Positions 28,989-45,423 of a stretch of DNA of 46,057 nt are shown one piece after another. The notes under the pieces were generated by a model that worked only from the letters and a program-made list of their open reading frames with translations, did no database searches and was not told the origin of the DNA. Both the position numbers and the translations under genes were made by a program. The DNA is from a virus: the IMG/VR virus record IMGVR_UViG_3300037311_000130. The stretch is one strand, 5' to 3'. Each line of letters opens with the position of its first letter. Within the stretch, counting starts at the first letter, position 1.

Positions 28989-30008
28989 TCAGTTCAGGCC
29001 CGTGCAGAGCCCGTCGATGAAGCCGATCGCGTTCGGGGCGAGCACCTCGAGCGTGCCCTCCCATTCCACCATGCCCTTCGTGCTCGAGCCGACCTTCGCC
29101 AGCTCCACGGCCAGGACCGGGCGCAGCACGGCGATGCGGAGCTTGCTGGCCTCCGCCGTCGAGATGCGGTCCGTCCGCTGGTAGCGGTGCAGGAAGATGC
29201 GCTGCGTGCCGAAGTCGCTCTGGTAGAAGTCGACCGTGTTGATGACCGTCCGCTCGTTGACGGGGATGTTGTAGCGGACGTTGCTGTTCGGGTTCATCGT
29301 CAGCGACGAGAGAGCCCGCTTCTGCGCGGCGTTCACCCAGAAGGTGTCCGTCATGGCGCCCTTCTCCCACATCGCCTGCAGGTGACCGTTCAGGATCGCC
29401 TCGGTGATGCAGTCGGTCGGGCTGTTGCCCAGGACGTCGGTGACGGTGCCGATCTCGTTCGCGCCGAGGCCGAGCGTGGTCGCGCAGGTCGGGTCCGACG
29501 CCTCCGCGTACGCGTAGTAGCCGTCCATCTTGCGCGGCAGCACGCCACCGCTGTTGCCCTGCGCCGTCTGGCTCTGGCGCTCCGAGTGGACCAGCGCGAA
29601 CTCGATGAAGCGCGCGAGCTCCATCGTCGCCTTGCGCAGCTGGTAGACGTACTCGTCACGGATGCCAGCGGTGTTGATGTCGCGCTGGGTGTCCGAGACG
29701 TCGAACGTCCGACGGATGATGTGGGTGAGGTTGCACAAACGCTTGCGCGGCACCAGGGGATCGAACGTCGCGTCCGAGCCTTCCGGCGTCGCCTGCACGT
29801 CTGCGTTGCCCACATCCGGGTCGCCGAAGTCGGCGAGGATGTCGACCAGCCACTCGTGGCTGATGTTGTTCGCCGGAACCTTCTCGAACCCGCTCAGGTA
29901 GAGCGTGTCCATCGGCGAGATGTTGGTGATGATGTCGAGGAGGTCTTCGCGGTTGCCGCGACCGACATCGAACGAGTTGAGGACTCCGAGGGAGCCAACG
30001 AACGTCAT
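28989..30008 (-). CDS. Major capsid protein (339 aa), HK97-fold, SU10/DUF5309-like
   Basis: GNREDLLDIITNISPMDTLYLSGF..ISHEWLVD matches the remembered N-terminal signature of this capsid family. It lies directly after a scaffold-like gene. Confidence 0.85.
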   Translation of the reverse strand: MTFVGSLGVLNSFDVGRGNREDLLDIITNISPMDTLYLSGFEKVPANNISHEWLVDILADFGDPDVGNADVQATPEGSDATFDPLVPRKRLCNLTHIIRRTFDVSDTQRDINTAGIRDEYVYQLRKATMELARFIEFALVHSERQSQTAQGNSGGVLPRKMDGYYAYAEASDPTCATTLGLGANEIGTVTDVLGNSPTDCITEAILNGHLQAMWEKGAMTDTFWVNAAQKRALSSLTMNPNSNVRYNIPVNERTVINTVDFYQSDFGTQRIFLHRYQRTDRISTAEASKLRIAVLRPVLAVELAKVGSSTKGMVEWEGTLEVLAPNAIGFIDGLCTGLN

Positions 30009-30063
30009 GGGATCTGCCTCTACCGAACGTGGTGAGAGGCGACCCCGTCAGCAGCTGCGTCGG

Positions 30064-31074
30064 TCAGCGTCCCCCGAACACTCGCCGGCGCAGCATGTCG
30101 TCGACCGCGGCGAGCCCGGCCTTCTGCTCGCGTGGATCGCTCGAGGCGCGCAGCTTGGCCATGCGCTCGGCTTCCTCACGGGCTTCCTGGACGGGATCGG
30201 TTTGCGGCTCCGGCTGCGGCGCGAAACGCGTGTTGGCGAGGGTGGAGCTTCCCGGTGCGACCACCGGCGGAATCGCCACCGCACTCGCCGACTGCCTCGT
30301 CACCAGCTCCTCTTGGTCCGCGACGGCACGGTACGCCTGTTCGATCGAGCAGTGCGGGTTCTTGCCCCGGAACATGTCGATCAGCGGCCCGTGGATCTGC
30401 AGGTCGAACCTCGGGTACTTGTTCGCCAGGGCCTCCATCTCCCGCCGCGCGTCGCGCGACTGGATCTGTTGCAGCTGCGGCTGGACCCGCGACATGATGC
30501 GCTGCTCGAGCTGGTCGAAGTGCTCGCGGAGGCGAGCATCCTGCAGCACGCGCATGCGCGTCTCTGGGTCCAGGTGATCGAGGTTCGCCTGCAGCATCTC
30601 TTGGTGCTGCTGCTCGAGAGCCTGTAGGCGCTGCTGGGTTTGCGCCAGCGTCTCGCCGTACTTGCGGCCCTCATCTCGTGCGGCTGCGAGCTCTGCGTCG
30701 CGTGCCCGAAGCTGGTCCACCAGCTCCTGAATCCGTCGTTGTGCCCTTGGGGAGTCTTGTGCTTCGGCGGACGGAGCCTGACCGACTGGCGCAAGCGGTG
30801 GGGCCTGGCTCCCGTCCAACGTCTGGTTCGGGGTGCCCGCGGGTGGTTGGTCGCCGATCTGCCGAGCGTGCTCGGCCTGTTGGCGCTCCATGGCCATCCT
30901 CGCGTAGCTCCCCTCCGGTGGAGGAGGTGCCGGCGGCTTGCCGTCTGGTCCGACTTCCACAGGTGCCGCTTGCGGCATCTGTCGCCCCTGCGCGATCAGG
31001 TTTCCCCGAAGCGCTTGGGCCGCCCTGTCGGCGTGTGCATTGAAGTTGCTAGGACTTGCTCCTGGCTTGGTCAT
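30064..31074 (-). CDS. Scaffolding protein-like (336 aa)
   Basis: Low complexity, Q/A/E/R-rich and helical (QQRLQALEQQHQEMLQANLDHL..). It lies between the portal and the capsid. Confidence 0.7.
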   Translation of the reverse strand: MTKPGASPSNFNAHADRAAQALRGNLIAQGRQMPQAAPVEVGPDGKPPAPPPPEGSYARMAMERQQAEHARQIGDQPPAGTPNQTLDGSQAPPLAPVGQAPSAEAQDSPRAQRRIQELVDQLRARDAELAAARDEGRKYGETLAQTQQRLQALEQQHQEMLQANLDHLDPETRMRVLQDARLREHFDQLEQRIMSRVQPQLQQIQSRDARREMEALANKYPRFDLQIHGPLIDMFRGKNPHCSIEQAYRAVADQEELVTRQSASAVAIPPVVAPGSSTLANTRFAPQPEPQTDPVQEAREEAERMAKLRASSDPREQKAGLAAVDDMLRRRVFGGR

Positions 31075-31187
31075 CTGGTCTCAGCGTTGCACGACGACGC
31101 TACAAGCAGTGCCGGGGTTGCGGGCGCGAATCCGCGTGCGCGCAGTGGCTTGGCCGATACGAAGCCTCGGCCATCGGGCGCAGCTGC

Positions 31188-31394
31188 TCAGGTCTTGATG
31201 TTGTCGTCGCCGTAGCCGAGCGACGGCGCTTGGTAGTGGTTGTTCGTCGAGGTGGCCGGGTGGCCAGAACGGGTCTTGGAGCCCATCGCCTCGATCGTGG
31301 ACGACATGCCGCTCGAGCGCTCGAGCGCCTTGCGGTTGTCGCCGGTCTTGGCCTGGGCCCCACCGATCGCGTCGCAGTGGCAGGAGTTCTTCAT
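31188..31394 (-). CDS. Hypothetical protein (68 aa)
   Basis: ATGA overlap at 31391-31394. Third-position GC is very high across the ORF. Confidence 0.6.
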   Translation of the reverse strand: MKNSCHCDAIGGAQAKTGDNRKALERSSGMSSTIEAMGSKTRSGHPATSTNNHYQAPSLGYGDDNIKT

Positions 31395-31762
31395 GGTTTC
31401 TCTCGGGGCTTCGGGGTGCGTTTCAGCAGCTCTTCGCGGTCATTCTGCATCCGCTCGAGGTGCCGTGCAAGGGTCGACACGTTGTCGCCGGGGAAGAAGA
31501 GCGCGCGCACGCGCTGCAGGCCAACGACGATCCCGCGGTGTTCGCGCATCTCGTCGTTCGACACCTTGGCGCTGACGAGACGGTCCTTGGCCACGGCGAT
31601 GTTGTCGTCGAGCGCCTTGAGGAAGTCGGCGAAGCCAGCAGAGTCGCGAATGGCCGCGGTGCGCTTCGCCAAGTCGATCGCCGCAGAAACGGTGGCGATC
31701 TGCTGATCGAGGATGGCGAGCTGCTCCCGCTCGCGCTCACGAACGTCCCAGATGTCGCTCAC
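31391..31762 (-). CDS. Hypothetical helical protein (123 aa)
   Basis: The GTG at 31762 overlaps the portal TGA (GTGA). Protein starts MSDIWDVREREREQLAILDQQIATV. Confidence 0.7.
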   Translation of the reverse strand: MSDIWDVREREREQLAILDQQIATVSAAIDLAKRTAAIRDSAGFADFLKALDDNIAVAKDRLVSAKVSNDEMREHRGIVVGLQRVRALFFPGDNVSTLARHLERMQNDREELLKRTPKPREKP

Positions 31763-34155
31763 TGCGCCCCCGCGTTCGGAGCCTGCCGGCCGGCATTGCT
31801 CTTCGCCTCACTGCCTTCGCCGCGCTCACCCTCGCCGCGGCGGACCTTCGGCGACTCCGGGTCTTGCTCAGGCCCGGCCGCGCCGGCGATCGGAGAACCA
31901 CCGCCCTGGCCGCCGCCGGCGGCCTGCTGCATCGAGCCCTGCTGCGACGCTTGCATGAGCATCTGCTCCTGCATCATCTGCATCAGCTCGATCTTGCGCA
32001 TGTGCTCCGCGATGTGCGCGCGAGCGCGCGCGGCGGTGCCTGGCGAGGTCTTCTCGAGGAGCGCGAAGCGATCGCTGGCGAGCTCCTCCATGTGCGCCAA
32101 GTAGTGGCGCATGTCGTTGTCGTCCGGCTTGCGCGGCGGGATCTTGAGGTGGTACCAGAGCTCGTGCTCCTGGCTCGGCGTCATCAGCTTGCCTTCCATC
32201 GGAAGGCTGATGAAGTCGTCGACGTTGCGGATGTCGAAGCCCATCTCGAGGATGTGCGCGAGCAGCCGCGGCATGTTGACCGCCTGCGGCCCGTACATCT
32301 GGTTGATGATCGGCGCGCGGTCGAGGATGTTCGTCAGCTGCTGCACCTGTGTCTGCTTGGTCGTCAGCCGGTGGCTGGCCAGCGGCGTGACGATGAAGCG
32401 GCCGATGATGTCCTCGGGCCGGATGGTGTAGCGGTCCTGAAACCGCTGGCCCAGCTGACCGAGTTCGCGGATGACGCGCGGGTAGCTGAGGAACTGCTGG
32501 TTGTTCCACGCCATCTTCTCGAGGAGAGGCACGGCGACGTCGGCCTCGAATCCCTCGACCATGGAGACGATGCGCATGTTCGCTTCGTCGATCTCGGCCA
32601 TGTGCTGCGTCGCCGTCTTGCTGTCGCCGAACGGGTCGCGGCCACCCATGCTCGGCGACGTGGCGCCGCTGGTCTCGCGGATGTCCATGGTCAGCACGTT
32701 CTCGGCCTTTAACGCCGAGTCGCTGACCTGCGGAACGTGCAGCGGCGCGATGCTGTCTTCGAGCGACGGCACGCGCACAGCAAGGCCCGGCTCGAGCACG
32801 AGCTGTCCAGGCGGGATGTTCGCCGCGTCGCTGACGAGCCACATCGGGTTCGCTTCAAGCTGCGTCGCGGACATGAGCAGGTTGCGCTTCATGTCCTTCT
32901 CCATCGAGAGGCGGGCGATCATCTCGAGCGAGCCGATGCCGTAGAACTCGTCCTCGAGCATGATCGGGCGCCAAGCCTGGTAGGGCTTGCGCTGATGCCA
33001 GAACGGGTTGACGGTCACGCGCACGACGAGCTGCAGGCTCTTCGGCTCGACCATGACGACGTTGCAGATGCGCGTCTCGAGGTTGCCGCGGTCGTTCTTG
33101 ATGACCAGCGGGCCCCACCAATCGAGGATCTCGTAGTGCGGGACGTGCGGTGCCCAGCTGGCTTCGCGCGGGTCGAACACGCCGTAGGCATAGCTCTTCC
33201 GTTCCTTGAACTCGTCGCCGAACGACGTGTCGCCGCTGCCGGGATGGTCGCGCAGCTTCTCGAGGTTGATCCAGTGGCCGAGCTCGCCCATCTCCTTCAC
33301 CTTGAAGTCGGCCATCGCGCTGCGATCGGCGCACCACTCGGCGTCGTCGATCGTGCTCGCGTTCGGCGCGGTGAGGAAGTCGAAGATGGTGACGTTCTTG
33401 ACGAAGTTGCCGTCGAAGATGATCTCCTTCTGCTTTACCTCGGAGAGCTCGACCTTCGACGTGCCGGGCATCTTCTCGTCGGGAACGCGACGGCCGTTGC
33501 GGTAGGTCATCTCCCCGATATCCTGCCGCCAGTAGACCTTGTTGATCGCGGTGCCGTAGATCAGGCCGCTTCGGACGAAGCGGTTCATCTCGGATTGGAA
33601 GCGGCTCGCGCGCAGCTGGTCGCGGCAGAGCGTCTCTTGCGCCTGCGCGGCGCCTTCGTGCTCCTCGTGGACGCCGTCGAACTTGAACCAGCGCGACTGC
33701 GCGAAGAGCGCGCGCATGATCTTCGGGTGCAGCGTCTCGACGATCTTGTAGGGCTCAGGGCTGTGGAGGCGCGTGCGACCGTAGGTGTACTGATCGAGGC
33801 TCTCGCCGCGGTAGAGCCGGTAGAGCACCAGCCACTTGTTCCGCAGGAACTCCATGACGTTGAACACGTCCTTCACGCCGGAGAGCACGGCGCCCTTGGC
33901 TTGCTCGACGACGAAAGGATCGTTCGCGAGGTTCGGGAAGCCGACGCTCTCCTCGTAGAGCCGGGCCTTCTGCTCGATGTCGGTGCCATCCGTCGCCGCC
34001 GACTCCGTCAACTCATAGGGTGCGAGGACGGGCTCGGTGCCCTTGCGCCGGCGGAACCGGCCCATTCCGCGCGACGCGACGGCCTCCACTCCGGTTCGCG
34101 GGTTCGGCGGGCTGCCCGCGGTGAACGACTGTCCCTGGAATCCCTTGTCGGCCAT
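31759..34155 (-). CDS. Portal protein (798 aa)
   Basis: The call rests on size, its position between the terminase region and scaffold/capsid, and a G/Q-rich C-terminal tail. The first 48 codons are overlapped by the read-through tail of the upstream ORF. Confidence 0.8.
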   Translation of the reverse strand: MADKGFQGQSFTAGSPPNPRTGVEAVASRGMGRFRRRKGTEPVLAPYELTESAATDGTDIEQKARLYEESVGFPNLANDPFVVEQAKGAVLSGVKDVFNVMEFLRNKWLVLYRLYRGESLDQYTYGRTRLHSPEPYKIVETLHPKIMRALFAQSRWFKFDGVHEEHEGAAQAQETLCRDQLRASRFQSEMNRFVRSGLIYGTAINKVYWRQDIGEMTYRNGRRVPDEKMPGTSKVELSEVKQKEIIFDGNFVKNVTIFDFLTAPNASTIDDAEWCADRSAMADFKVKEMGELGHWINLEKLRDHPGSGDTSFGDEFKERKSYAYGVFDPREASWAPHVPHYEILDWWGPLVIKNDRGNLETRICNVVMVEPKSLQLVVRVTVNPFWHQRKPYQAWRPIMLEDEFYGIGSLEMIARLSMEKDMKRNLLMSATQLEANPMWLVSDAANIPPGQLVLEPGLAVRVPSLEDSIAPLHVPQVSDSALKAENVLTMDIRETSGATSPSMGGRDPFGDSKTATQHMAEIDEANMRIVSMVEGFEADVAVPLLEKMAWNNQQFLSYPRVIRELGQLGQRFQDRYTIRPEDIIGRFIVTPLASHRLTTKQTQVQQLTNILDRAPIINQMYGPQAVNMPRLLAHILEMGFDIRNVDDFISLPMEGKLMTPSQEHELWYHLKIPPRKPDDNDMRHYLAHMEELASDRFALLEKTSPGTAARARAHIAEHMRKIELMQMMQEQMLMQASQQGSMQQAAGGGQGGGSPIAGAAGPEQDPESPKVRRGEGERGEGSEAKSNAGRQAPNAGAQ

Positions 34156-35083
34156 CGGTCACTTGCCTCGCTTCACGTCGCTGGGTTCCTCGATCCGGTC
34201 GAGGTCGTCCGATCGGAGGGGCATCGGCAGCGTTCTGCTCTGCTGCACTTCCTCCTGAACCTGCTGCTTGTTCTGCGGGCCGATCGCATTCACCTGCTGC
34301 AGCAGATCGTCCGAGAGCTTGGGCTTGTTCCTCATCGAGAACCTCGAGCGCGTCGTAGATGGGGCCGGACCACCCTGGCCAGAGCAGGGCGCGACCAGGC
34401 CACTGCCGACGGTACCACGTCAGCCAGTCGATCGCACGACCGGGATCGGAGTAGAACGTCGATCGCTTGGTCACCGGGTTCTCGCGGCCGAAGAAGTAGC
34501 CACCACCGCTCTGCAGCGTGAAGCCGCAGAGGTAGATGGGCCAGCACCCCATCAGCGTCGCGGTCTGCAGCATGTAGCAGACGCTGTTGCCGCCAGGGTG
34601 GTAGGGGTCCGTGAACTTCTCTGGCATGAACGGCGGCACCCACGCAGCCTGCCACTTGCCGCCGTTGTCGCGACGGCCGCCCTTCGGCAGTGCGATGTCG
34701 AAGTCGCAGGTCGGCCACTTGCGGCGGCCGACGACGCGCATCTCGTGCGAGCCTGCGACGCTGTAGGGACCGCCGCCGAAGATGCGCGAGTGAACTACAA
34801 CAACCAGGGAGTCGGGGCATCCAGAGAGAGCTGATCGCTCGCTCTGCCAGACGTTCGCGTCTGCAACATGCCAAACGCTGGGGACCAACGCTCGGAGGGT
34901 CCAGTTGCTGCCGATGACGATGCGACCGCGAGCAGCTTCGATGCAGGAGGAGTCAACCAGTCCGGCGGCTCCCCCAAAGAGGAAGCAAGGGCGGCCGGTA
35001 GCGATGCCCACAAGCCAGTTCGGATCAGCACCTCGGCCGCTCGGTGGGTGTAGCTGTGCCGCTTGGAAATCAGGTAGGAGCAT
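34013..35083 (-). CDS. DUF115 / MptE-like (Maf-type) putative sugar transferase; both ends uncertain
   Basis: RPCFLFGGAAGL..IVIGSNW and GGNSVCYMLQTATLMGCWPIYLCGF resemble the two Rossmann-type blocks recalled for this family. The start may be the GTG at 35011. The last roughly 107 codons (34013-34335) look out-of-frame (R/A/G/P-rich, low GC3). Confidence 0.5.
   Translation of the reverse strand: MLLPDFQAAQLHPPSGRGADPNWLVGIATGRPCFLFGGAAGLVDSSCIEAARGRIVIGSNWTLRALVPSVWHVADANVWQSERSALSGCPDSLVVVVHSRIFGGGPYSVAGSHEMRVVGRRKWPTCDFDIALPKGGRRDNGGKWQAAWVPPFMPEKFTDPYHPGGNSVCYMLQTATLMGCWPIYLCGFTLQSGGGYFFGRENPVTKRSTFYSDPGRAIDWLTWYRRQWPGRALLWPGWSGPIYDALEVLDEEQAQALGRSAAAGECDRPAEQAAGSGGSAAEQNAADAPPIGRPRPDRGTQRREARQVTDGRQGIPGTVVHRGQPAEPANRSGGRRVARNGPVPPAQGHRARPRTL
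34159..34335 (-). CDS. Hidden small ORF (58 aa) immediately upstream of the portal
   Basis: It is below the track cut-off. Sequence MRNKPKLSDDLLQQVNAIGPQNKQQVQEEVQQSRTLPMPLRSDDLDRIEEPSDVKRGK*. GC3 is much higher than in the overlapping frame. The TGA lies 3 nt before the portal ATG. Confidence 0.6.
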   Translation of the reverse strand: MRNKPKLSDDLLQQVNAIGPQNKQQVQEEVQQSRTLPMPLRSDDLDRIEEPSDVKRGK

Positions 35084-36096
35084 GCGCGTCCGATGGCCTC
35101 GGCTTCGTCAGCGTTCTGCTGGTAGTAGAGCACCAGCTCGAGGAAGTGGTCTGGATCGCTCGCCGCCGGCGCCATGGGGAACATGCGCATCAGCTCCGAG
35201 CGATGGTTGTCGCTGACGACGAGCGTGCCGCACGCGGCCATCTCGAAGAAGCGCGGGTTGACGTGCGACGCCGGCAGGTTCGGCTCGTTGAAGAAGCCTG
35301 TGCCTTCGGAGGCAGGGGCCGTCGACGTCGGTACGATGCCCTTGGGGAACGGCATGTGGCGGCTCCTGCCGAGCACGCGCTTCTTGAAGCACTCCATCGT
35401 GATGCCTGGGTGCCGATGCACGTTCAGGCCGACGGCGCAGCTGCTGTAGAGCTTCGGGTGCTCGGCGTGCGACACCCAGCGCGGGTCGCGCTTGCCGACC
35501 GTGCCGAAGAACCGGATGTCGGCGCCGTCGACGAGCCGCTGCACCGGCTCAAGCCACGCCGGTCGCGGAACCAGCGTTGCGTTGCCGAGGAAGAACGCTC
35601 CCTTGCGGTCGCGGTAGTCGACCAGCGGGAACTTCTCGGTGTCAGCGCACGGCGGCAGGTAGAAGACGTTGGCGCGGTCCTCGCGCGAGAGCCGATGCGC
35701 CTCGACCGTGCAGGCGTCCATCGTGAACACGAACTTGAAGAGCGGCGACCACCTCGCCGTCTCGCCGATCTCGTAGGGTTCGTCGCAAAGGTAGACCGCC
35801 GTGACGATGCGGTGCTTGTGCAGCTCGGTAAGGAACTCGATGTTGCCGGCGGCGCGGCCGTGATGGCACCAGACGAGATCCGGCTTCCACTTCGCGATGT
35901 TGCGTGCCAGGTCGCGCGCAGTGCCCGGCATCGCCGTCGTCGAGTAGGGCGAGCGACCACCGAGCGCCAAGCGCCGAAGAGGCGAGATGTCGAACCGCTG
36001 CACCTCGCAGCCAGTGCGTTCGAACCCCTTGGTCCATCCCTCGCGGTAGTCGTCGCTGTAGATCAGCGAGGAGTCGTCTGCGATTGCGACGCGCAT
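34795..36096 (-). CDS. CgeB-like glycosyltransferase (433 aa)
   Basis: The ATG at 36096 is preceded by GAGGAG. VNPRFFEMAACGTLVVSDNHRSELMRMF and ..KRHSYTHRAAEVL match the recalled C-terminal signature of the CgeB / Glyco_trans_1_2 family. The last roughly 76 codons look like a read-through tail. Confidence 0.75.
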   Translation of the reverse strand: MRVAIADDSSLIYSDDYREGWTKGFERTGCEVQRFDISPLRRLALGGRSPYSTTAMPGTARDLARNIAKWKPDLVWCHHGRAAGNIEFLTELHKHRIVTAVYLCDEPYEIGETARWSPLFKFVFTMDACTVEAHRLSREDRANVFYLPPCADTEKFPLVDYRDRKGAFFLGNATLVPRPAWLEPVQRLVDGADIRFFGTVGKRDPRWVSHAEHPKLYSSCAVGLNVHRHPGITMECFKKRVLGRSRHMPFPKGIVPTSTAPASEGTGFFNEPNLPASHVNPRFFEMAACGTLVVSDNHRSELMRMFPMAPAASDPDHFLELVLYYQQNADEAEAIGRACSYLISKRHSYTHRAAEVLIRTGLWASLPAALASSLGEPPDWLTPPASKLLAVASSSAATGPSERWSPAFGMLQTRTSGRASDQLSLDAPTPWLL

Positions 36097-36692
36097 GGCT
36101 TGTGCTCCTCGTGGTCGGCGACATGGAACCGGACGCCGGGGTGATACCAGCAGGAGTGCCCGGTAGCGAAGGCGTGTTCGAACCACTGCTTCATCGCACT
36201 CTCTTCGCGGAGCATCAGCTCCTTCGTGGCGGCGAACCGCGTCTTGACGACGAAGAAGGTGCCGTCGAGCGGCGGCAGCTTGCGCGTGCGACGCACCGGC
36301 GCCGCGGCCGAGCTCTGCGCGTTCGGCGCCATGTCGACCAGGGCGAGGCCAGGGTCGCGATCGAAGAGCTGCCGAACCTTCGACACCCACTTCTTGTCGT
36401 CGAGGCGCACCTGCGCCGGCACGACGACGCTCATCGGGTGCTTGGGCGTCTTGATCGCGCGGTTCAGCAGTGCCAGCTGACCGACCGGCGTGCGTTCGTG
36501 GATGATCCTCCACTCGATGTGCTTGGGCACGGCGCTCATCGTGGCGCGAATCGGGTCGACAGCACGCTCGGTGCCGCCATCGACCATGACCTTGATCGTC
36601 ATGGGCGCGTCGGTGTGCTCCTCGATCGAGCGGATGCAGTCAGGAACCAGGAGCAGGTTTGCCGCTGGCGTCGTGATGATGATGTCGAGCAT
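36063..36692 (-). CDS. GT-A (family-2-like) glycosyltransferase, putative (209 aa)
   Basis: MLDIIITTPAANLLLVPDCIRSIEEHT..KVMVDGGT resembles a GT2 N-terminal Rossmann start plus an acidic motif. This is the weakest assignment in the cluster. Confidence 0.5.
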   Translation of the reverse strand: MLDIIITTPAANLLLVPDCIRSIEEHTDAPMTIKVMVDGGTERAVDPIRATMSAVPKHIEWRIIHERTPVGQLALLNRAIKTPKHPMSVVVPAQVRLDDKKWVSKVRQLFDRDPGLALVDMAPNAQSSAAAPVRRTRKLPPLDGTFFVVKTRFAATKELMLREESAMKQWFEHAFATGHSCWYHPGVRFHVADHEEHKPCASQSQTTPR

Positions 36693-36876
36693 TGTGCTGT
36701 TGCTGTCGAGCGCCCTCTCGGGCGATGTGCCGTCGCTGGCACCGCGCGCTGCAGAACGTGACCACCTTCTGTTGCTGGCGCAGCGCCGCCGCCACAGGGC
36801 CTTTCGGCAGGAAGACGTCCCTAGAGCACCCAGCGCACGGGACCAGGGCCGTTTCGCTGTTGGGTTCGGTCGCCAT
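36640..36876 (-). CDS. Small zinc-finger protein (78 aa), YacG-like Cys spacing
   Basis: MATEPNSETALVPCAGCSRDVFLP....VVTFCSARCQRRH (CxxC ... FCSxRC), with a His-rich C-terminus. Confidence 0.55.
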   Translation of the reverse strand: MATEPNSETALVPCAGCSRDVFLPKGPVAAALRQQQKVVTFCSARCQRRHIAREGARQQQHNARHHHHDASGKPAPGS

Positions 36877-37120
36877 GCTGTTCCTCGGCTGGATCGAGCT
36901 CTTGCTCGTCGTGTTGGATGGTGCGGGAGTCGGCGACTTCATGCTGCGACGCGATCAGCTCGTCTCGAGTGCGCGCCGGGTAGCGGTAGTTGTCGCCAGG
37001 TAGGTTGTTGCCGCTGACGCCGCCGGCGGCGCGCAGCTGCTCGTAGCCGTTCTGCACGGCGTTCTTCACGGCCTCGGCGACTTGGTCGATCCACGGCGCG
37101 GCGCCGTAGGCGTCCGTCAG
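36821..37120 (-). CDS. Possible small protein with a non-canonical or undetermined start
   Basis: The high-GC3 frame begins right at the TerL stop (..ATT CTG ACG GAC GCC TAC GGC..), and no ATG is available. Candidate starts are CTG 37120, GTG 37216, GTG 37069 and GTG 37057. Confidence 0.35.
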   Translation of the reverse strand: MTDAYGAAPWIDQVAEAVKNAVQNGYEQLRAAGGVSGNNLPGDNYRYPARTRDELIASQHEVADSRTIQHDEQELDPAEEQHGDRTQQRNGPGPVRWVL

Positions 37121-38868
37121 AATCTCCCGAACCGCCTCGGCTGAGGTGGCGGCTGCTTGAACAAACTGTCGCTGCTGGACGTTTCGGTTGCGGGTTGCGA
37201 ACCTCGGTTGCGCCACAGGCTGTCGCCCTGCTGGTTGCCCTTGGTGAACTCCCTGGCCGGGTATCCCCGGTCGGGGTTGTACTTGCCGTCGATCAGGTTC
37301 GGGAGCTGCCGGATCGCCGTGTTGGTGGCGAACCCGGAAGGTGGGGCGGGAGCGATCCATTGTCCTTCCTTGGTCTTCTTGTCGATGTCGCTGATGGCAT
37401 CGGGGATGTCGTCGTGCTGGCTGTAGGGCCACTCGGTCATCTCGTCGATGAGCGGCTTCCACTTCTTCCAGTTCTGCTTGAGGGAGCGCGCGAAGAAGAT
37501 GTTGCCAGCGCGGAAACGAGGCTCGGCGGCCTCAATGCGCATCTCCTTCACTTCCTGATTTCTGCCGGCGACCGCGATGATCTTCGGGCGCGTGAACGTC
37601 TGGCGCCTGATCTCTTCGAAGAGCGACGAGAGCAGTTCCTTGTGCGTCGTCTCCTCGACCACGAGCCCCTTCATGTTGAGGCTCTGGTAGCGATCCCACA
37701 GGTCGCACGCGATGCGAACGGTGTCGCTCGGCTTCCAACGTCCGACGATGAAGTCGCGCACGTAGGCGACGCGGTTCGCGTCGAGCGAGACGACCCAGAA
37801 GCACGTTCGGTCGGCCTTGCCCTTCTTCTTCTCCTCGGCGATGAACGCGAAGTCGCTGAGGATGTAGGTCCACACCGAAGCGGGGATGTCCTCGTCTTCG
37901 ATGACGCGGAAGTACTCGGCCTTGAAGATGCGCTCTTCGTCCGTCGTCGGCTTGTTCTCGTAGTAGCACGCGAACTGGCGTGGTGGCATCGTCGCCTTCT
38001 GCTGCGTGATGAACGCGCGCGTCAGGCGGCCAGGGAAGAAGAGCGTTCCGTCGGGGTTCAGCCAGGAATGGATCGACAGCTCGAAGAGCTGTCGCATCTC
38101 CGGCGTCTTCATGATGTGGCAGTAGAGGTCGGCGAAATGGTGCAGCGTGCCGATCATCAGGATGCGGCAGCCGGGGTCGAGCTGCGCCATGATCTCGCCG
38201 AACCAGTACTTCATCGCCTCGATCGACTCGGGCGTGCGCGTGTTCTCCTGGCTGACGACGTCGTCCATCAGCACGAGATCCCAGTGCGAGCCGGTCCACA
38301 CCTCGCCGGCGCCGGCGGCGAGCAGCGTGCTCTCCTTCGCGTGGGAGATGGTTCTCAGAGCAGACGTGAACTCGCCCGTACTCTCCTTCCACTCGACTTC
38401 CTTGCGGTGGACGCCGAAGCGATCTCGGTACCACTGCGAGTCGATGATCTTCATGGCCTGCTTCACGAACTTGCGGGCTTGCTTTCCCGTCTCGGAGCAG
38501 ACGCAGATGCGGATGTTCGGGTTGCGCGCGATCTCCCAACAGACGAGCGCCACGTCGAAGACCGCGCTCTTGAACGAGCCGCGCGGCCAGAGCTGCATCT
38601 TGTAGGTGTAGATGCCGCGCTTCGACTCGGGGTCTGGCTTCCACTTCCAGTTGAGGATCTCGAGCGCGCCGCGGCCGTGGGGCTGCTCCTGCGCGTCTGG
38701 CGCGGCGCCGCTATCGCGCGCGAAGTCGAGGAACCCTTCGACGGTCTTGTAGTAGTCCGCCTCTTGTCGGAGGCGGAACGCACGCAGATCCTCTGGCGAC
38801 ATCGAGCGCGCGAGGCGCTCGAGGTCAGAGCCTGGCGAAGACGTAGGTTCCGATCCCTTCGCGGCCAT
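37117..38868 (-). CDS. terL: Terminase large subunit (583 aa from ATG 38868)
   Basis: GAGGAG lies 4 nt upstream of ATG 38868. ATPase-like PRGSFKS and LVLMDDV(V)SQEN are followed by a C-terminal nuclease-like half. Alternative starts are 38880, 38904 and 38802. Confidence 0.85.
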   Translation of the reverse strand: MAAKGSEPTSSPGSDLERLARSMSPEDLRAFRLRQEADYYKTVEGFLDFARDSGAAPDAQEQPHGRGALEILNWKWKPDPESKRGIYTYKMQLWPRGSFKSAVFDVALVCWEIARNPNIRICVCSETGKQARKFVKQAMKIIDSQWYRDRFGVHRKEVEWKESTGEFTSALRTISHAKESTLLAAGAGEVWTGSHWDLVLMDDVVSQENTRTPESIEAMKYWFGEIMAQLDPGCRILMIGTLHHFADLYCHIMKTPEMRQLFELSIHSWLNPDGTLFFPGRLTRAFITQQKATMPPRQFACYYENKPTTDEERIFKAEYFRVIEDEDIPASVWTYILSDFAFIAEEKKKGKADRTCFWVVSLDANRVAYVRDFIVGRWKPSDTVRIACDLWDRYQSLNMKGLVVEETTHKELLSSLFEEIRRQTFTRPKIIAVAGRNQEVKEMRIEAAEPRFRAGNIFFARSLKQNWKKWKPLIDEMTEWPYSQHDDIPDAISDIDKKTKEGQWIAPAPPSGFATNTAIRQLPNLIDGKYNPDRGYPAREFTKGNQQGDSLWRNRGSQPATETSSSDSLFKQPPPQPRRFGRF

Positions 38869-39439
38869 AGCGCTCCTCATCGCGGTTGCGCTCGAGCAAG
38901 CCAAAGCCCTGATCCCGCATCCAACGGATGAGGCCGGCCTCGGTGAAGTACCAGATGTGCTCGCCGGGCTTGTAGTGCTTGCTGCGGATGACGTGCTCGG
39001 CGCTGTCGAAGATCGGCAGCGACATCAGCACCTTCTTCCGCACGTTCCTGAGCATCGCCTCCGGCGAGAGCATGTGCTCGAGGCTGTCCCAACAGGTGAC
39101 GTTGTCGACTGCCAGCTTCGTTGGATCGTCGAACAAGTCTCTGGACCTCAGTATCACCTCAGAGGAGCTATTGACGTCGTAGCCGTAGATCGGCATGCCG
39201 CACTTCTGCATGTAGTTGACGAAGCCGAGAGCCCCAACCCCAACGTCAACAGTTCGATGCTCTAGCCGAGAATGCCTGCAGAGGACTGCCCCGCGATGCT
39301 CGATCAGGCTCTTGCCGACCTCGGTGCCTTCGCGCACTCGGCACTTCTCGAAGTAGTCGTCGTCGTAGCGCACGACAGTCTTCTCGTCCGGCAGCTCGCG
39401 CCCGTAGCCCTTGTGCGGCCACCACACCAGTTCGCTCAT
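38825..39439 (-). CDS. Class I SAM-dependent methyltransferase (204 aa)
   Basis: Motif I-like VDVGVGALGF is followed by ..GYDVN.. and CWDSLEHM. I saw no DPPY/NPPY or PC DNA-methyltransferase motif. GC is visibly lower than in the neighbouring genes. Confidence 0.75.
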   Translation of the reverse strand: MSELVWWPHKGYGRELPDEKTVVRYDDDYFEKCRVREGTEVGKSLIEHRGAVLCRHSRLEHRTVDVGVGALGFVNYMQKCGMPIYGYDVNSSSEVILRSRDLFDDPTKLAVDNVTCWDSLEHMLSPEAMLRNVRKKVLMSLPIFDSAEHVIRSKHYKPGEHIWYFTEAGLIRWMRDQGFGLLERNRDEERYGREGIGTYVFARL

Positions 39440-40419
39440 CGCATCACCTCGAGGACGTGGTCGGCGACGACGTCAGGATGGTCCTTCGTGTGGACCGCGC
39501 GGTAGCGCCGCGCTTGGACCGCGTCGGGCCGGCACCAGTTGTAGCGCATGCCTTCACTGAACTGCCACCAGTCGCCCCAGATGCACACGACCGGCGTGCC
39601 CAGCTGCGTCGCGATCATGGGGCTACCCGACGGGTGGCCGAACATCGCCGAAGCGCGCCGTTTCAGGTGGATCAGCTGCGCCCACGTCGTCTTGCCGGTC
39701 ATGTCGACCACGCGCGGGTGCGCGCCGCGCAGCATCGCGCCGACCTTCTCGTCCCACTTCGCGCCGACGAGCAGGATCTTGTGCGGCAGCTTCGCGTCGT
39801 CGAGCCGATTGCCGACGGAGAGAAGGGCCTCGGTCGGCGGCGCCGCCTTCCACCACTCCTCGTAGAAGCTGGCCTTGTAGAAGTTCGCCAGCAGGAACTT
39901 CTCGGGCGCTTCGATCGACTGCTCCGCGTGCTCGATCGGGTAATCCCAATCGGTCGCGCCGGCCTGTGGCCAGATGCCGGCCATCGGCGTGCCGAGCTCG
40001 ACGAGCTTGTTCGCGGCGATGAACAGGTCGAAGCCCGGCATGTCGGTGAAGACCTTGCCGTGGAAGAAGCTCGCGGTGGTGAACGCCGTCCACCGCTTCG
40101 GGCGGATGTCGAGGTAGCCGCCGAAGTCGAGCCACGGCACGCAGCGCAGGAAGTCGCCGGCGCGATCGAACGACGGGTCGCCGCTGCAGACGGTGACCAC
40201 CGGCTTGTGCTTGTCGTTGCCGCTCTGCTTCAACAGGCCGCGCAGGCGCAGAAGCACCCAGTGGATGTCGCCGACGCCAGGCGGCATCAGGATGCGCAGC
40301 GGCCGGTCCTTCGCCTTCAACGCGATCTCGAGCGTCGGCTGCGGCTGCTTGGGAGCCTTCACCTGGTAGGTTCCGGCCTTCGTGACGACTCTGCGCACCT
40401 CAGTCCTCCTCGGGTTCAT
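39436..40419 (-). CDS. GT9-family (heptosyltransferase-like) glycosyltransferase (327 aa)
   Basis: ILMPPGVGDIHWVL plus VDMTGKTTWAQLIHLKRRASAMFGHPSGSPMIATQLGTPVVCIWG match the recalled GT9 C-terminal signature (..GkT.l.el..l...a...vg.DSG.mHlA.alG.P.v.lfG). Confidence 0.8.
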   Translation of the reverse strand: MNPRRTEVRRVVTKAGTYQVKAPKQPQPTLEIALKAKDRPLRILMPPGVGDIHWVLLRLRGLLKQSGNDKHKPVVTVCSGDPSFDRAGDFLRCVPWLDFGGYLDIRPKRWTAFTTASFFHGKVFTDMPGFDLFIAANKLVELGTPMAGIWPQAGATDWDYPIEHAEQSIEAPEKFLLANFYKASFYEEWWKAAPPTEALLSVGNRLDDAKLPHKILLVGAKWDEKVGAMLRGAHPRVVDMTGKTTWAQLIHLKRRASAMFGHPSGSPMIATQLGTPVVCIWGDWWQFSEGMRYNWCRPDAVQARRYRAVHTKDHPDVVADHVLEVMR

Positions 40420-41134
40420 CTTCGTCTCTGGTCTTCGGAACGGTGTCGAAGCTCGCGTCCTTGGCGTTCTCGACCAGCTTGGCCGCGGTGATCTTCTTCG
40501 CCTCGAGCTTCACGAGCGCGTCGATCTCCTGCTTCGTCACGTCGTCCACCTTGTGCGTGACTTCGACGCGATGGATCGCGCTGTCGACGATGCCGATGCT
40601 CTGTAGCGCCTTCAAGTAGTCGCGCTCGACCGCCCAGAACGCCTTGTGGTCGCCGGCCTCGATCGCTAGCTGCTTGGCGCGCTCGGCCGCCGCGTGCAGC
40701 TGGCCGGCGATGGTGTCGAGGCGGATGCCGACGACCTGCTGCCCGACCTCGCTCGCATACGCCTGGTAGGTGCGCATCACCGCCGACTCGGTGATGCCGA
40801 GCTCGGTGGCGATCACGGCGCTGGCGAAGCCGGTGTTGCGCAGCTTCACGATCAGGGCGCCGCGCTGCGGGTCGGTGAGGCCCTTGAACCACTCGGCGCG
40901 CTTGCTCCGCGGGTGCTGTTGGAGGGAAGTCCACAGCCGGGCGCCAAGATCCTCGAGCGTGTACTTCTGCGTCATCCCGCCGTCCGGCGGGATGGCGGTG
41001 ATGCCATGGTCGACGAGCAGGTTGCACAGCTCGGCGACCGTCAGGCCGACCGCCGCCGCGGCCTTCTCCGCCGTCGCCATGGCGTCGGTGTTGGCGATCG
41101 CCGGCAGGACGAAGGGCTCGCGCTTCTTGGCCAC
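40400..41134 (-). CDS. Terminase small subunit-like DNA-binding protein (244 aa)
   Basis: GTG start. Sigma-70 region-4/LuxR-like HTH LTDPQRGALIVKLRNTGFASAVIATELGITESAVMRTY is followed by a helical oligomerisation-like region and an acidic tail. It lies upstream of terL. Confidence 0.55.
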   Translation of the reverse strand: MAKKREPFVLPAIANTDAMATAEKAAAAVGLTVAELCNLLVDHGITAIPPDGGMTQKYTLEDLGARLWTSLQQHPRSKRAEWFKGLTDPQRGALIVKLRNTGFASAVIATELGITESAVMRTYQAYASEVGQQVVGIRLDTIAGQLHAAAERAKQLAIEAGDHKAFWAVERDYLKALQSIGIVDSAIHRVEVTHKVDDVTKQEIDALVKLEAKKITAAKLVENAKDASFDTVPKTRDEDEPEED

Positions 41135-41144
41135 GAGCTGGAGA

Positions 41145-41534
41145 CTACGCCTGGTCGTCGGTCTTCGGGTCGCTGATCGTGCGGCGCGGCTTCGCCTCGA
41201 TGACCACCTGCGTCGTCGTCTGCACCTGGATGTCGAGGATCTCCATGGCGCGGAAGATCATCACCTGCTTGCCGGCCAGCAGGTTGCCACCTTCCTTGCG
41301 AATCCACTTCGCCGCCTTGACCGTGTCCTCGAAGCGCGGGATGCCGGGGATCGGCAGCAGCGCACCGGCGGGGGTCTCGCGACCCGGCAGGACGACCTCG
41401 TAGATGCAGTAGTCGCCTTCGCCACCGCCAAGCAGGCGCTTGCGGTTGCCACGCTTCGGCGCCCGCTTCTTCTTCGGCGTCGGGTTCGCTTCGTCGGTTG
41501 GGGTGGTCGGAACTTCCTGGGTGGTGTCGGTCAT
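41145..41534 (-). CDS. Hypothetical protein (129 aa) with a basic N-terminus
   Basis: ATGA overlap at 41531-41534. Protein starts MTDTTQEVPTTPTDEANPTPKKKRAPKRGNRKR. Confidence 0.7.
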   Translation of the reverse strand: MTDTTQEVPTTPTDEANPTPKKKRAPKRGNRKRLLGGGEGDYCIYEVVLPGRETPAGALLPIPGIPRFEDTVKAAKWIRKEGGNLLAGKQVMIFRAMEILDIQVQTTTQVVIEAKPRRTISDPKTDDQA

Positions 41535-41731
41535 GCTTCTGGTGTAGCAACGGGCTTCTCGGTTTGCAAGTGCATGATGGCGAGCGCCATGTCGTGGATC
41601 ACGTTGCAAAGCAACTGACGCTGCGCCGCTGGCGTCGCATCGAACGGAACCCAGGCTTGTTGCCCTAGAGAATCACGCGTCTGCTCCTCAAGTGCCACCG
41701 TCGACCGGTCCACTATCACCGCTCGGACCAT
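41531..41731 (-). CDS. Hypothetical protein (66 aa)
   Basis: ATG at 41731, MVRAVIVDRSTVALEEQTRDSLGQQAWVPF. It overlaps the upstream gene by 44 nt. Confidence 0.55.
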   Translation of the reverse strand: MVRAVIVDRSTVALEEQTRDSLGQQAWVPFDATPAAQRQLLCNVIHDMALAIMHLQTEKPVATPEA

Positions 41732-42434
41732 GTTGCCCGTCTGGAGTTTTCCACTCCAAACGGGTGTCGGAGTTCTCAGCTTGTTGTCGCTGGAAGTGGA
41801 ATCCGACGAAGTCGTCGGGTTCTTGGGCGAACTTGCAGGGTCGGGTGTTGGGGTCTTCATCGTAGCTGTAGCGGCGATCGCCGCACTTGGTGCAGAAGTC
41901 CATGTAGGGCCAGTCGGTCTGCGACGCCATCCGAGCCAGCTTCCAGCGGTGACCGTAGCTGAACACCGCCCCGTTCGCATCCCTGACCAGCGCGATCGGC
42001 GCTCGAGGATCGCGCGAGGTGTGCGCCGGCAGCACGTTGGCCTCGCGGGTCGCCTTGCGGCCCCGGTAGGGGTAGGCGCGCGCCAGATCGAGGAACTCGT
42101 CTCGAGACAGCGCGCCACCGAGATCGGCGCCCAGAAGCTCAACCAGGTCGAGCAGGACGCAGATGGCCGCCCCGAAGCTGACCCCGTCCTCGCTGAACCG
42201 GACGCGCATGCCGAGCTTCGCGCGCCAACTGCGCAGCCGCTGGTAGGCCGCGATGTTCAGCACGAGGGTCGTCTGCCCACCCGACACGCTCTTCGCCCGC
42301 AGCTTGAACGAGTCGAGCAGCGCCTTGCGCTCGGCAACAGGATCACTCGCCGGCACAAGCGGCGCCGCGGCATCATCTTGCGTCGCCGCATCAGCCGGCG
42401 TCACGGGCGGAAGGCCATCGGAGGAAGGAGCCAT
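41688..42434 (-). CDS. Hypothetical protein (248 aa), first gene of the leftward arm
   Basis: ATG at 42434. Contains a ..DFCTKCGDRRYSYDEDPNTRPC.. Cys cluster and has normal amino-acid composition. The alternative ORF 41531..42142 is Arg/Thr-rich junk upstream of 41731. Confidence 0.75.
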   Translation of the reverse strand: MAPSSDGLPPVTPADAATQDDAAAPLVPASDPVAERKALLDSFKLRAKSVSGGQTTLVLNIAAYQRLRSWRAKLGMRVRFSEDGVSFGAAICVLLDLVELLGADLGGALSRDEFLDLARAYPYRGRKATREANVLPAHTSRDPRAPIALVRDANGAVFSYGHRWKLARMASQTDWPYMDFCTKCGDRRYSYDEDPNTRPCKFAQEPDDFVGFHFQRQQAENSDTRLEWKTPDGQHGPSGDSGPVDGGT

Positions 42435-42511
42435 CGGCGCGTTCTACCACCACCCCGAGGCGCCGTCAACAACCATGAAGAGAACCCATATACCCTTGCC
42501 TGTGAGAGAAA

Positions 42512-42720
42512 CCCCCCCCCCCCTACGCGTAAGAGTGAGTGCGCATGCCCCAACAACAACAACAACAACAACCACTCATCTTAGAGAGAGAGAGATAGGA
42601 GATAGGATATCTACAGGGAGGTTCAGGATTTTCTCCTGGTTTTTTTACGGTGAAGGGTGCTGACGCTGCCACTCCGTCGGGAATCTGAGGGGCCTGTCGT
42701 TTCGGCGTTCGGTTTTTTTT
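42512..42720. repeat. Cluster of low-complexity tracts in the control region: C12 (42512-42523), (CAA)7 (42551-42571), (AG)6A (42583-42595), T7 (42640-42646), T8 (42713-42720)
   Basis: Counted directly. The tracts stand out against the GC-rich, tract-free remainder of the genome. Confidence 0.9.
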
Positions 42721-42840
42721 GGGGGACGAGGGATGAGGGGATGCTTCATTCCGTAAATGAGGCGAGGTGGGCCCCGACGCGTCCGGGTCTCGCAAGTGCC
42801 GATGGCAACGGGAGTTACGCGCTCGAGGAACCTGGCGACC

Positions 42841-42888
42841 GTGTAATAATTACACACCTAACATCCCCCTAACGTGTAAAAGTTACAC
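42841..42888. promoter_or_regulatory. Two operator-like palindromes GTGTAA-N3-TTACAC (42841-42855 perfect 7+1+7; 42874-42888 with 6-bp arms), centres 33 bp apart
   Basis: GTGTAATAATTACAC and GTGTAAAAGTTACAC were read directly. They lie in the AT-richest patch of the divergent intergenic region, about 170-215 bp upstream of the first rightward gene. Confidence 0.6.
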
Positions 42889-43055
42889 GGTATACCTCAC
42901 TTCCACCACACAACATCTCCCGTCCCTCGACCGAACCGCCATCCACACAAGCACAAGCGCGCTTTCTCTCCCCTCTACTTGCTTCCGCTCGACTCTCGTG
43001 CTACGCTGCCCACGTTCGCGCTTCCCTTCTCTCTCCTTTCTCTACAGGAGCCCCC

Positions 43056-43406
43056 GTGAACCGTTCTCCTCTCGACCGCGCGCAGCGCATTATCGACAAA
43101 CTCGATACGTGCTGTGAAGCACAGACCTTCCTCCCCGGCTCTGACTATCCGTCGGCTGTGGCCATCGTCGCCTCGTTCACGCACGAACTGGCGCATGCCG
43201 AACGGCAGCTAGCACAGCTGCGCAACGGCCCGACCTTCTACATGCGAAACGGCAAGCGCCACGGCGTGGCGTTGCTGCCGATCCTCCGTCGCCTCATTCG
43301 CTCCCTCGCCGCTTCGCGTCGTCTACTGGCGCAGCACCGTGACGAATGCCGTGGCGTCGCCGATCCTGCAGAGGCACGCATTGCGCGTGCACAGGGGGGA
43401 CGATGA
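43056..43406 (+). CDS. Early hypothetical protein (116 aa)
   Basis: GTG at 43056 with AGGAG 5 nt upstream. It is preceded by an 85-bp CT-rich leader. Confidence 0.7.
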   Translation: MNRSPLDRAQRIIDKLDTCCEAQTFLPGSDYPSAVAIVASFTHELAHAERQLAQLRNGPTFYMRNGKRHGVALLPILRRLIRSLAASRRLLAQHRDECRGVADPAEARIARAQGGR

Positions 43407-43642: not shown

Positions 43643-43645
43643 ACC

Positions 43646-45420: not shown

Positions 45421-45423
45421 TGT

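Follow-up and report, generated by a model that had tools for sequence, protein, structure and literature searches.

The stretch of DNA considered here is IMG/VR virus record IMGVR_UViG_3300037311_000130, 46,057 nucleotides (nt) in length and hereafter called the window. It is the nearly complete genome of an uncultured tailed phage with a G+C content of 66%, and its late (minus) strand carries five predicted sugar-modifying enzymes interleaved with the genes around terL and the portal. Comparison with other phage contigs separates the five into a core of three transferases between terL and the portal gene and a pair, a GT9-like glycosyltransferase followed by a methyltransferase, that occupies an exchangeable island upstream of terL and recurs as a cassette in the morphogenesis operons of unrelated phages. 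In their order along the minus strand, the enzyme genes are as follows (lengths in amino acids, aa; AF2, AlphaFold2 model):

39436..40419, minus strand: GT9-like (GT-B) glycosyltransferase, 327 aa, first gene of the cassette, assigned through the PF01075 matches of its homologues
38825..39439, minus strand: class I S-adenosylmethionine (SAM) methyltransferase (MT), 204 aa, second gene of the cassette, Methyltransf_23
36063..36692, minus strand: GT-A fold glycosyltransferase, 209 aa, assigned from AF2 (pLDDT 89, pTM 0.84) and Foldseek
34795..36096, minus strand: CgeB-like GT-B glycosyltransferase, 433 aa, PF13524 Glyco_trans_1_2 (E=1.9e-21, 77 bits against a cut-off of 25)
34313..35083, minus strand, within an open reading frame that extends to 34013: sialyltransferase-fold/MptE-like (DUF115-like) protein, conserved core of 257 aa, assigned from AF2 (pLDDT 80.8, pTM 0.83) and Foldseek

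Since many spurious open reading frames (ORFs) open at high G+C, third-position G+C (GC3) was used to pick the coding frame. Each of the five enzyme ORFs occupies the GC3-preferred frame across its own span, and purifying selection is seen in the homologues of all five on related contigs, so the five minus-strand genes named in the initial annotation stand as coding sequences. The genes that border and separate them, together with the major capsid protein (MCP) gene further downstream, are:

40400..41134, minus strand: TerS-like helix-turn-helix (HTH) protein, 244 aa, upstream border of the island, called from GC3, with weak matches to HTH_23 (E=1e-3) and phrog_3855
37117..38802, minus strand: terL, phrog_38 'terminase large subunit' (E=2.5e-72), probable ATG at 38802, inferred from the translation
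36821..37150, minus strand: small conserved ORF of ~109 aa, start approximate, called from GC3 and found by tblastn at 39-52% identity in the same position in 26 relatives
36640..36876, minus strand: small Cys-rich, zinc-ribbon-like ORF (CxxC...CxxxC), 78 aa, called from its translation, 36-59% identical in the same position in relatives
34159..34335, minus strand: small ORF, 58 aa, immediately before the portal gene, called from a GC3 frame switch and its translation
31759..34155, minus strand: SU10-type portal protein, closing the core module on its downstream side, PF23899 SU10_portal (E=2.8e-29) and phrog_1216 (E=8e-31)
28989..30008, minus strand: MCP, SU10 type, PF17236 SU10_MCP (E=3.5e-63) and phrog_1328, 78-90% identical in relatives

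As first noted for most of them, the enzyme genes adjoin or overlap their neighbours. The overlaps measure 20 nt between the TerS-like and GT9-like genes, 4 nt between the GT9-like gene and the MT, 34 nt between the GT-A and CgeB-like genes and 289 nt between the CgeB-like and MptE-like genes, and the MT stop is separated from terL by ~22 nt, given the terL ATG at 38802. Strand, gene order and overlaps suggest expression alongside the virion genes, and a consensus scan of both strands between 28 and 44 kb found terminator-like sites no commoner than in shuffled sequence. The Cys-rich ORF has no significant family match, and the position of the 58-aa ORF also holds small called genes in three relatives (L037, L038, L048). 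For the gene that the initial annotation took to be terS, the position upstream of terL is borne out in every relative, where the protein is 42-51% identical; a profile of its 12 homologues matched no TerS family or structure in PDB and PHROGs, and the TerS-like identity is therefore a positional one.

Pfam assigns two of the enzymes directly, in agreement with their first annotation: the CgeB-like protein through PF13524 and the MT through Methyltransf_23 (PF13489, E=3.6e-11, 43.5 bits against a cut-off of 27), the latter with a further match to phrog_6564 'methyltransferase' (E=4.7e-48) and the glycine-rich SAM motif VDVGVGALG in its translation. The GT9-like protein on its own stays below the cut-offs of both PF01075 (E=1.6e-3, 18.2 bits against 22) and TIGR02195 (E=2e-3). 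An exhaustive HMMER search of the representative library gives 370 homologues, and a scan of 60 of them gives PF01075 matches for 27 (best E=5e-15) and fused Methyltransf_23/11 domains for 29; by transitive homology the window protein thus belongs to a divergent GT9-like subfamily. The closest homologues, P0081 (54% identity) and P0082 (38%), come from related phages, where their genes occupy this slot too, and tblastn finds no homologue among 50,697 cultured-phage records. A closer kinship with the TibC/Aah heptosyltransferases, which had been suggested for this gene, is not borne out: TibC aligns to residues 238-282, a span of 45 residues, at E=0.029.

Predicted structures give the classes of the other two enzymes. 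The GT-A gene has no match in Pfam, NCBIfam or PHROGs, so it does not join the Pfam GT2 families by sequence. Its model returns 603 PDB matches at E<=1e-3 in Foldseek, with TM scores up to 0.74; the best 50 of the 603 are all GT-A transferases, and the matches listed include 6p61, PcManGT (6yv7, TM 0.74), CvHAS, GnT-I, GalNAc-T2 and SpsA. Two positions are conserved, Asp38 (at least 90% conserved) in a VDGG motif and an invariant Asp99 in an xD motif; the latter departs from the canonical DxD in that the first position varies and the second Asp is kept throughout.

For the MptE-like protein, the best PDB matches in Foldseek are CstII (1ro7/2x62) and a Pasteurella sialyltransferase (9c08), with probabilities of 0.96-0.99, and the human ST8SiaIII/ST6GalNAc2, with probabilities of 0.57-0.80, all at TM scores of ~0.5. 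The model also has 16 BFVD matches at E<=1e-3, among them viral proteins named MptE-like, DUF115 or GT29. The fold is sialyltransferase-like (a GT-A variant), with a glycine-rich loop near the N-terminus and a central S-x7-A-x3-G-x3-I-Y-x-x-G motif; the family conserves GGAGGL and GGNSxCYxIQTAHLMGCxPIYxLGF, which may correspond to the CstII motifs. By sequence, the ORF matches nothing in Pfam, PHROGs or NCBIfam, the family profile has no significant match in PDB (9c08, E=2), and PF01973, the only Pfam family matched among 30 family members, is matched by 4 of them at a sub-threshold best E of 0.088, so a specific kinship with Maf, drawn on for this gene at the outset, is not borne out. The family profile does match the MptE-like regions of P0213 (E=1.5e-4) and P0140 (E=1.2e-3) in a set of 150 sequences. 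Sequence homologues number ~50, all at least 46% identical to the query, and those whose neighbourhood was examined belong to the same phage clade.

The fold class given to this ORF in the initial annotation (DUF115/MptE-like, 34013-35083) is retained, and its extent is not: only 34313-35083, residues 1-257, is conserved among relatives. The remainder (34013-34312, minus strand) is a low-complexity read-through tail of ~100 aa that runs across the 34159-34335 ORF and the first 143 nt of the portal gene, and because its length varies among relatives it is probably non-functional. At the other end, the ORF overlaps the CgeB-like gene out of frame (34795..35083, minus strand, 289 nt); 16 of 17 relatives have an overlap of 283-292 nt, and the MptE-like ATG and an upstream GAGG are conserved. 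Within the overlap, the pattern of variable codon positions shifts to that of the MptE-like frame, with less variation at third positions; the part of the MptE-like N-terminus encoded there is modelled with confidence, and the CgeB-like protein goes on matching PF13524 for ~20 residues into it. Together these features speak for genuine dual coding. A programmed frameshift between the two ORFs was considered and set aside because the MptE-like frame stops 8 codons before the conserved ATG with its GAGG.

How the five genes divide becomes apparent from the relatives, some 40 contigs in all. A TerL search of IMG/VR gave 31 loci with TerL 50-79% identical to that of the window, and all window proteins were compared with these by tblastn. 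The order terL, small ORF, zinc-ribbon ORF, GT-A, CgeB-like, MptE-like, portal is kept in each IMG/VR locus that covers the region, down to 50% TerL identity, and again in L037, L038 and L048, whose syntenic CgeB-like gene also matches PF13524. The CgeB-like protein is 52-67% identical in each relative spanning the region, with no homologue in the 50,697 cultured-phage records (tblastn), and the MptE-like protein is 44-65% identical across the TerL-related loci. The GT-A protein, in contrast to the CgeB-like protein and to TerL (50-79%) in the same loci, is only 21-36% identical, and in L038 its slot holds a 295-aa protein that matches PF00535 (GT2) directly, a sign that an enzyme determining specificity may have diverged faster or been replaced by other alleles.

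The junction between the TerS-like gene and terL behaves quite differently from this conserved order. Homologues of the GT9-like protein and the MT are found in none of the 31 TerL-related loci, and the distance from the TerS-like gene to terL ranges from 0.3-0.5 kb (L023, L024, L026) up to 3.6 kb. In the three shortest cases the island holds no enzyme gene, with the CgeB-like and MptE-like genes kept in all three and the GT-A gene in two. Across the clade the insertions run from one small ORF without assigned function to about six genes, among them GT2-like and TOD1/MUCI70-like proteins, methyltransferases of the Methyltransf_23/24/11 and FkbM types, sulfotransferases and a few unassigned ORFs; one family of 241-256 aa (A5) has no PDB match and reaches a probability of 3% in hhalign against the GT-A family. 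The GT9-like gene followed by the MT occurs in the same slot in L037 (54%), L038/L039 (38%), L048, with extra island genes, and L049, found via a protein search. Conserved order on one side and varied junction on the other lead us to a vertically inherited core of three transferases and an exchangeable tailoring island at the TerS-like/terL junction. This junction is a recurrent insertion hot-spot in the clade, and the separation of terS from terL by two enzymes, singled out in the initial annotation as unusual in itself, is one instance of it. The five enzymes had also been described there as a single interleaved system; late glycosylation is still their best reading, and they are better described as two units, the core triad and a cargo island.

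The GT9-like/MT combination extends well beyond the clade. Half of the 150 best GT9-like homologues, 75 in number, include an MT domain homologous to that of the window (P0210 in the same GT9-then-MT order, E=5e-29), and two homologues also carry an MptE-like domain that the window MptE-like family profile detects. Polypeptides that combine MptE-like, MT and GT9-like domains tie the enzyme types of core and island to a single pathway. The contigs of ten GT9-like homologues were inspected, and all ten are phage-like: three are clade relatives with the gene in the same slot, five are multidomain proteins on unrelated contigs and two lie beside other methyltransferases. Methyltransferase domains are found in four of the five multidomain homologues, and three of the five are encoded between head and tail genes on siphovirus-like contigs. 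The first of these (L041) is a 1020-aa MptE-like + MT + GT9-like protein, separated by one small ORF from the MCP gene upstream and followed by sulfotransferase, tail terminator, tail tube and tape-measure genes. The second (L042), a 780-aa MT + GT9-like protein, lies downstream of the MCP gene and is flanked by two sulfotransferases. In the third (L043) the protein has 1709 aa, with three GT9-like stretches and two MT domains, and downstream of its gene come an APS kinase gene and tail genes. In this region of the contig (2530-13137), genes for a Zn-dehydrogenase, an SDR protein, a PfkB kinase, a transketolase/E1-like protein and a CmcI-type methyltransferase precede that of the 1709-aa protein; this looks like a phage-borne set of sugar-synthesis and sulfation genes inside a structural operon. 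Of the two remaining homologues, one is encoded on L044, where a few genes separate it from the terminase, portal and capsid genes downstream, and the other on L045, in unannotated surroundings; the latter includes an MptE-like domain, and a Methyltransf_23 gene stands apart from it nearby.

A pattern scan of IMG/VR added 32 further GT9-like loci, one of them an SU10-like relative. An MT homologue lies directly downstream of the GT9-like gene in 29 of the 31 loci with room for one, a count that amounts to few independent lineages because many of the sampled loci are closely interrelated, and a tail-tube gene follows 1.8-2.1 kb further on in 16 of the 21 loci that are long enough. In L053, for example, the order is terL, portal, HK97-type MCP, GT9-like, MT, tail tube, chaperone and tape measure, and the MCP is 45% identical to lambdoid major head proteins.

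Related genes are also present in the cultured Pseudomonas phages D3 and PMG1 (Detrevirus), whose methyltransferases are 38-41% identical to the window MT and are encoded between head-closure and tail genes, preceded by an overlapping ORF of 276 aa. In PMG1 (NC_016765, L035) these two genes and an ORF annotated 'alpha-2,3-sialyltransferase' take up 3149-3745 and 5130-6528 in the head-tail module; the sialyltransferase ORF directly follows the MCP gene, and its match to the MptE-like family is weak (E=0.017). We considered the 276-aa ORF as a member of the GT9-like family and did not retain it, the match being at motif level only and not significant. Unlike the window, D3 and PMG1 have no CgeB-like or GT-A partner. 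A literature search found no functional study of their MT, 276-aa or sialyltransferase ORFs.

Where the products of these genes would act can be narrowed down from what accompanies them. The scans of the window took in all ORFs of at least 200 aa except a 1415-aa GTG-start extension of a tail gene. No transmembrane (TM) segment is predicted in the five enzymes or in the island proteins of relatives, and Pfam scans of the 46-kb window found no flippase, polymerase, ligase, initiating phosphoglycosyltransferase or nucleotide-sugar pathway, which together lead us to enzymes acting in the cytoplasm on host-supplied donors. The best reading of the whole, one that we regard as about evenly balanced between right and wrong, is that virion proteins are glycosylated in the cytoplasm late in infection and that the tailoring of the glycan varies from strain to strain. 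What the analysis shows is which classes the enzymes belong to, in which order their genes lie, how core and island differ in conservation, and that the cassette comes back in the morphogenesis operons of unrelated phages; what the proposal itself would add is expression together with the morphogenesis genes, the sugar donors, the sequence of steps and, most of all, the acceptor.

If virion proteins are glycosylated in this way, the system would work in two layers. In the first, the GT-A, CgeB-like and sialyltransferase-fold/MptE-like enzymes would build a short base glycan from host nucleotide sugars. In the second, the exchangeable island, here the GT9-like enzyme and the MT, would add and cap further residues. 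The acceptor would be one or more virion proteins modified during assembly, among which the MCP (28989..30008) would be a candidate, and progeny particles would gain a strain-variable, methylated glycan coat. The fast-evolving GT-A enzyme and the variable island would set the specificity of the glycan, and methyl or sulfate groups would cap it.

Four considerations favour a virion acceptor: the core is fixed between two morphogenesis genes throughout the clade, translational packing joins the enzyme genes to late genes, unrelated phages carry the cassette between their head and tail genes, and there is precedent in mycobacteriophages and chloroviruses. The suggestion that the phage glycosylates its own virion, made in the initial annotation with the host envelope as the alternative, thus gains comparative weight from the recurrence in head-tail operons, although a choice between virion and host surface is beyond what sequence can settle.

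A number of points weigh against a virion acceptor, beginning with the small number of independent lineages behind the 29 cassette loci. The assignment of the acceptor is a proposal from genes alone. The MCP has no obvious Ser/Thr-rich tail. A Ser/Thr-rich stretch had been pointed out in the 1273-aa tail protein, and it is real (15 of 30 residues) and weak as evidence. The MptE-like assignment is one of predicted fold, at a TM score of ~0.5 and 8-9% identity. Enzymes of the GT9, GT2 and CgeB types mostly use lipid-linked or polysaccharide acceptors, and since soluble or peripheral enzymes can modify intermediates of lipopolysaccharide (LPS) and capsular polysaccharide (CPS), the missing TM segments are compatible with host acceptors as well. 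Structural operons, finally, are favoured sites of cargo insertion, so position alone is no proof.

Several of these points would fit a different scenario, in which the enzymes remodel the host envelope, acting at the cytoplasmic face on intermediates of LPS core, O-antigen, capsule or S-layer glycan. In one variant, the added, methyl-capped residues would alter chain extension or export late in infection. The outcome would be a masked or removed receptor, fewer progeny lost on debris, or a block to superinfection. The families involved (GT9, GT2, FkbM/RfbT-type methyltransferases, sulfotransferases) are classic tailoring families of LPS and polysaccharides, fusions of MT and glycosyltransferase domains resemble the chain terminators of ABC-transporter-dependent glycan pathways such as WbdD and WsaE, soluble or peripheral enzymes would be enough for such acceptors, and a variable island would suit variable host glycans. 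The known phage systems of serotype conversion (GtrABC; P22, Sf6 and epsilon15; Iap/Wzy-beta of D3), however, belong to temperate phages, are expressed in lysogeny, employ membrane proteins and lie near attachment or lysogeny modules. The window shares with them phage enzymes that would act on glycans and a gene content that varies between related phages, but its proteins are soluble and packed translationally into a late operon, where late expression would leave little time for a new surface glycan, and scans of the near-complete, lytic-looking 46-kb genome found neither integrase nor repressor. Adaptation to host glycans alone would also hardly explain why unrelated phages carry the cassette between head and tail genes. 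On balance we consider envelope remodelling unlikely, though it deserves to be taken seriously.

Another cytoplasmic target, whether a host receptor, a pilin or flagellin precursor, a defence protein or a small molecule, or else no common target at all, with five unrelated cargo genes gathered in a permissive region, strikes us as quite improbable. Proteins are glycosylated from the cytoplasm (or mother-cell cytoplasm) with nucleotide sugars by Maf/DUF115 enzymes on flagellin, by TibC/Aah on autotransporters, where the modification is heptosylation, and by CgeB/CgeD in the spore crust of B. subtilis, and MptE-like/Maf and TibC-type GT9 enzymes are known to act on specific proteins. The fold classes of the window enzymes are the same as in these bacterial systems, but the similarity is remote and the acceptors differ, and the window holds no nonulosonic-acid or heptose biosynthesis genes. 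As for cargo, the island does behave as an exchangeable element and several of its ORFs are without family assignment; the core triad, on the other hand, is vertically conserved with terL and the portal gene clade-wide rather than exchanged, the Rosetta-stone fusions link the enzyme types, and glycan-type enzymes make up nearly all of the island's content, in favour of a single common pathway and against unrelated cargo.

Glycosylation of phage DNA before packaging, with the MT further modifying the bases against restriction as in T4 and other phages with glycans on 5-hydroxymethylcytosine (5hmC), would use comparable tools. We know of no sulfated DNA base, and the sulfotransferase and APS kinase partners of the cassette in other phages would be ill-suited to DNA. 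The DNA-modifying systems (T4 alpha/beta-GT; 5mYOX/ThyS-linked) likewise employ GT-A and GT-B enzymes on host nucleotide sugars in diverse, exchangeable sets; phage enzymes of both folds attach diverse sugars to 5hmC, some have been suggested by the authors to accommodate bulkier ones such as Kdo or heptose, and their genes are sometimes found near terminase genes (bioRxiv 10.1101/2023.12.21.572611), as the enzyme genes here flank terL. Those systems, however, need a hydroxymethyl-pyrimidine pathway nearby, and this reading is very improbable here, given morphogenesis genes as neighbours, no such pathway and no thymidylate-synthase-like hydroxymethylase, TET/JBP-type dioxygenase, C5-cytosine methyltransferase or dNTP-modifying enzyme in the scanned ORFs, an MT of Methyltransf_23 type with no DNA-methylase match, and a DNA-methylase domain in only 1 of the 60 GT9-like homologues.

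Virion glycosylation itself has precedents of two kinds. The chlorovirus PBCV-1, a eukaryotic giant virus, reportedly encodes a cytoplasmic pathway for its capsid glycan, with A064R and partners, in which a GT-A transferase is fused to a sugar O-methyltransferase. Its glycan is N-linked on Vp54 and capped by methylated sugars. The principle of several virus-encoded enzymes is the same as proposed for the window, the likeness seen being one of description, not of sequence. Among phages, glycosylation of the virion by phage-encoded transferases is proven in the mycobacteriophages Che8, Rita and others (Freeman et al. 2023, Cell Host Microbe, via PMC11256854, PMC12619734 and PMC13313380), where soluble transferases, sometimes with a methyltransferase, reportedly modify capsid and tail-tube subunits in the cytoplasm and give the particle a glycan shield, much as the enzymes of the window would. 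The differences are considerable. Mycobacteriophage hosts are actinobacterial, and the Cluster F1 transferase genes lie near the right genome end and not between terL and portal (PMC11256854). The window, in contrast, uses other enzyme families (GT-A, CgeB-like, sialyltransferase-fold, GT9-like) laid out as a conserved core and a variable island, its host is perhaps diderm, to judge from a putative lipoprotein-like ORF, and its virion glycosylation is so far a proposal.

A literature search found no description of this core-plus-island glycosylation layout. If virion glycosylation holds, new elements would be the enzyme families, the triad between terL and the portal gene, the hypervariable island at the terminase junction and a GT9-like/MT cassette shared with HK97-like siphoviruses. 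To our knowledge, glycosylation of phage virions is experimentally established only in a handful of actinobacteriophages, where it alters immune recognition. It is possible, though we lean slightly against it, that glycan-coated virions are widespread among uncultured phages, possibly of diderm hosts, through a lineage-fixed core and a mobile GT9-like/MT cassette that moves between SU10-like and HK97-like phages, often fused to MptE-like domains and accompanied by sulfotransferase or APS kinase partners; the variable methylated or sulfated glycan would then be a diversifying surface trait bearing on adsorption, shielding or stability. If this is true for the clade and the HK97-like carriers, glycan coats with methyl and sulfate caps would be a common and evolvable trait of phage surfaces, with a bearing on host range, environmental persistence, antibody and lectin recognition, and phage engineering. 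The layout of core and island offers a comparative handle by which base-glycan enzymes may be told from diversifying ones, and the homologous genes in the cultured Pseudomonas phages D3 and PMG1 make the idea of virion glycosylation directly testable.

A protein of the window has an identical counterpart on a JGI contig of 46,083 bp. Megablast of positions 30,000-46,057 against the 50,697 GenBank phage records gave no matches, and the closest TerL among these records is only ~24% identical. A search of GTDB for the host returned three contigs of metagenome-assembled genomes (MAGs) only, labelled 'Deltaproteobacteria bacterium', 'bacterium' and 'Bacterium BMS3Bbin02', and since these look like binned phage contigs we make no host call from them. 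Two small overlapping ORFs lie on the minus strand at 11508-11983, and the one at 11777-11983 begins MKTLILVALLLCSCAG, which resembles a lipoprotein signal; if the two form a spanin-like pair, as they may, the host would be diderm.

A few further features lie at a distance from the enzyme genes. The window encodes an SNF2-type helicase and a primase-like protein. G+C dips to ~0.62 at 42.4-43.9 kb, between the last large minus-strand ORF (41688-42434) and the next plus-strand ORFs, and the sole sigma-70-like match between 28 and 44 kb, at chance level, lies at 43089-43118 on the minus strand, upstream of the late genes (TTCACA-18-GATAAT). Right at its end the window holds a (GCC)n-like tract of 222 nt (45810-46031; period 9/12, 76-84% matches), with Gly/Ala-rich pseudo-ORFs on both strands, which may mark either the terminus of the genome or the edge of an assembly. 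At the far end of the late strand, a 623-aa protein (9370-11241, minus strand) has a signal-peptide-like hydrophobic N-terminus and no Pfam or PHROG match. The 1943-aa protein at 11980-17811 (minus strand) contains an LPD38 'large polyvalent protein' domain (E=9e-30) together with a phrog_9854 match and is likely an ejected or internal virion protein.

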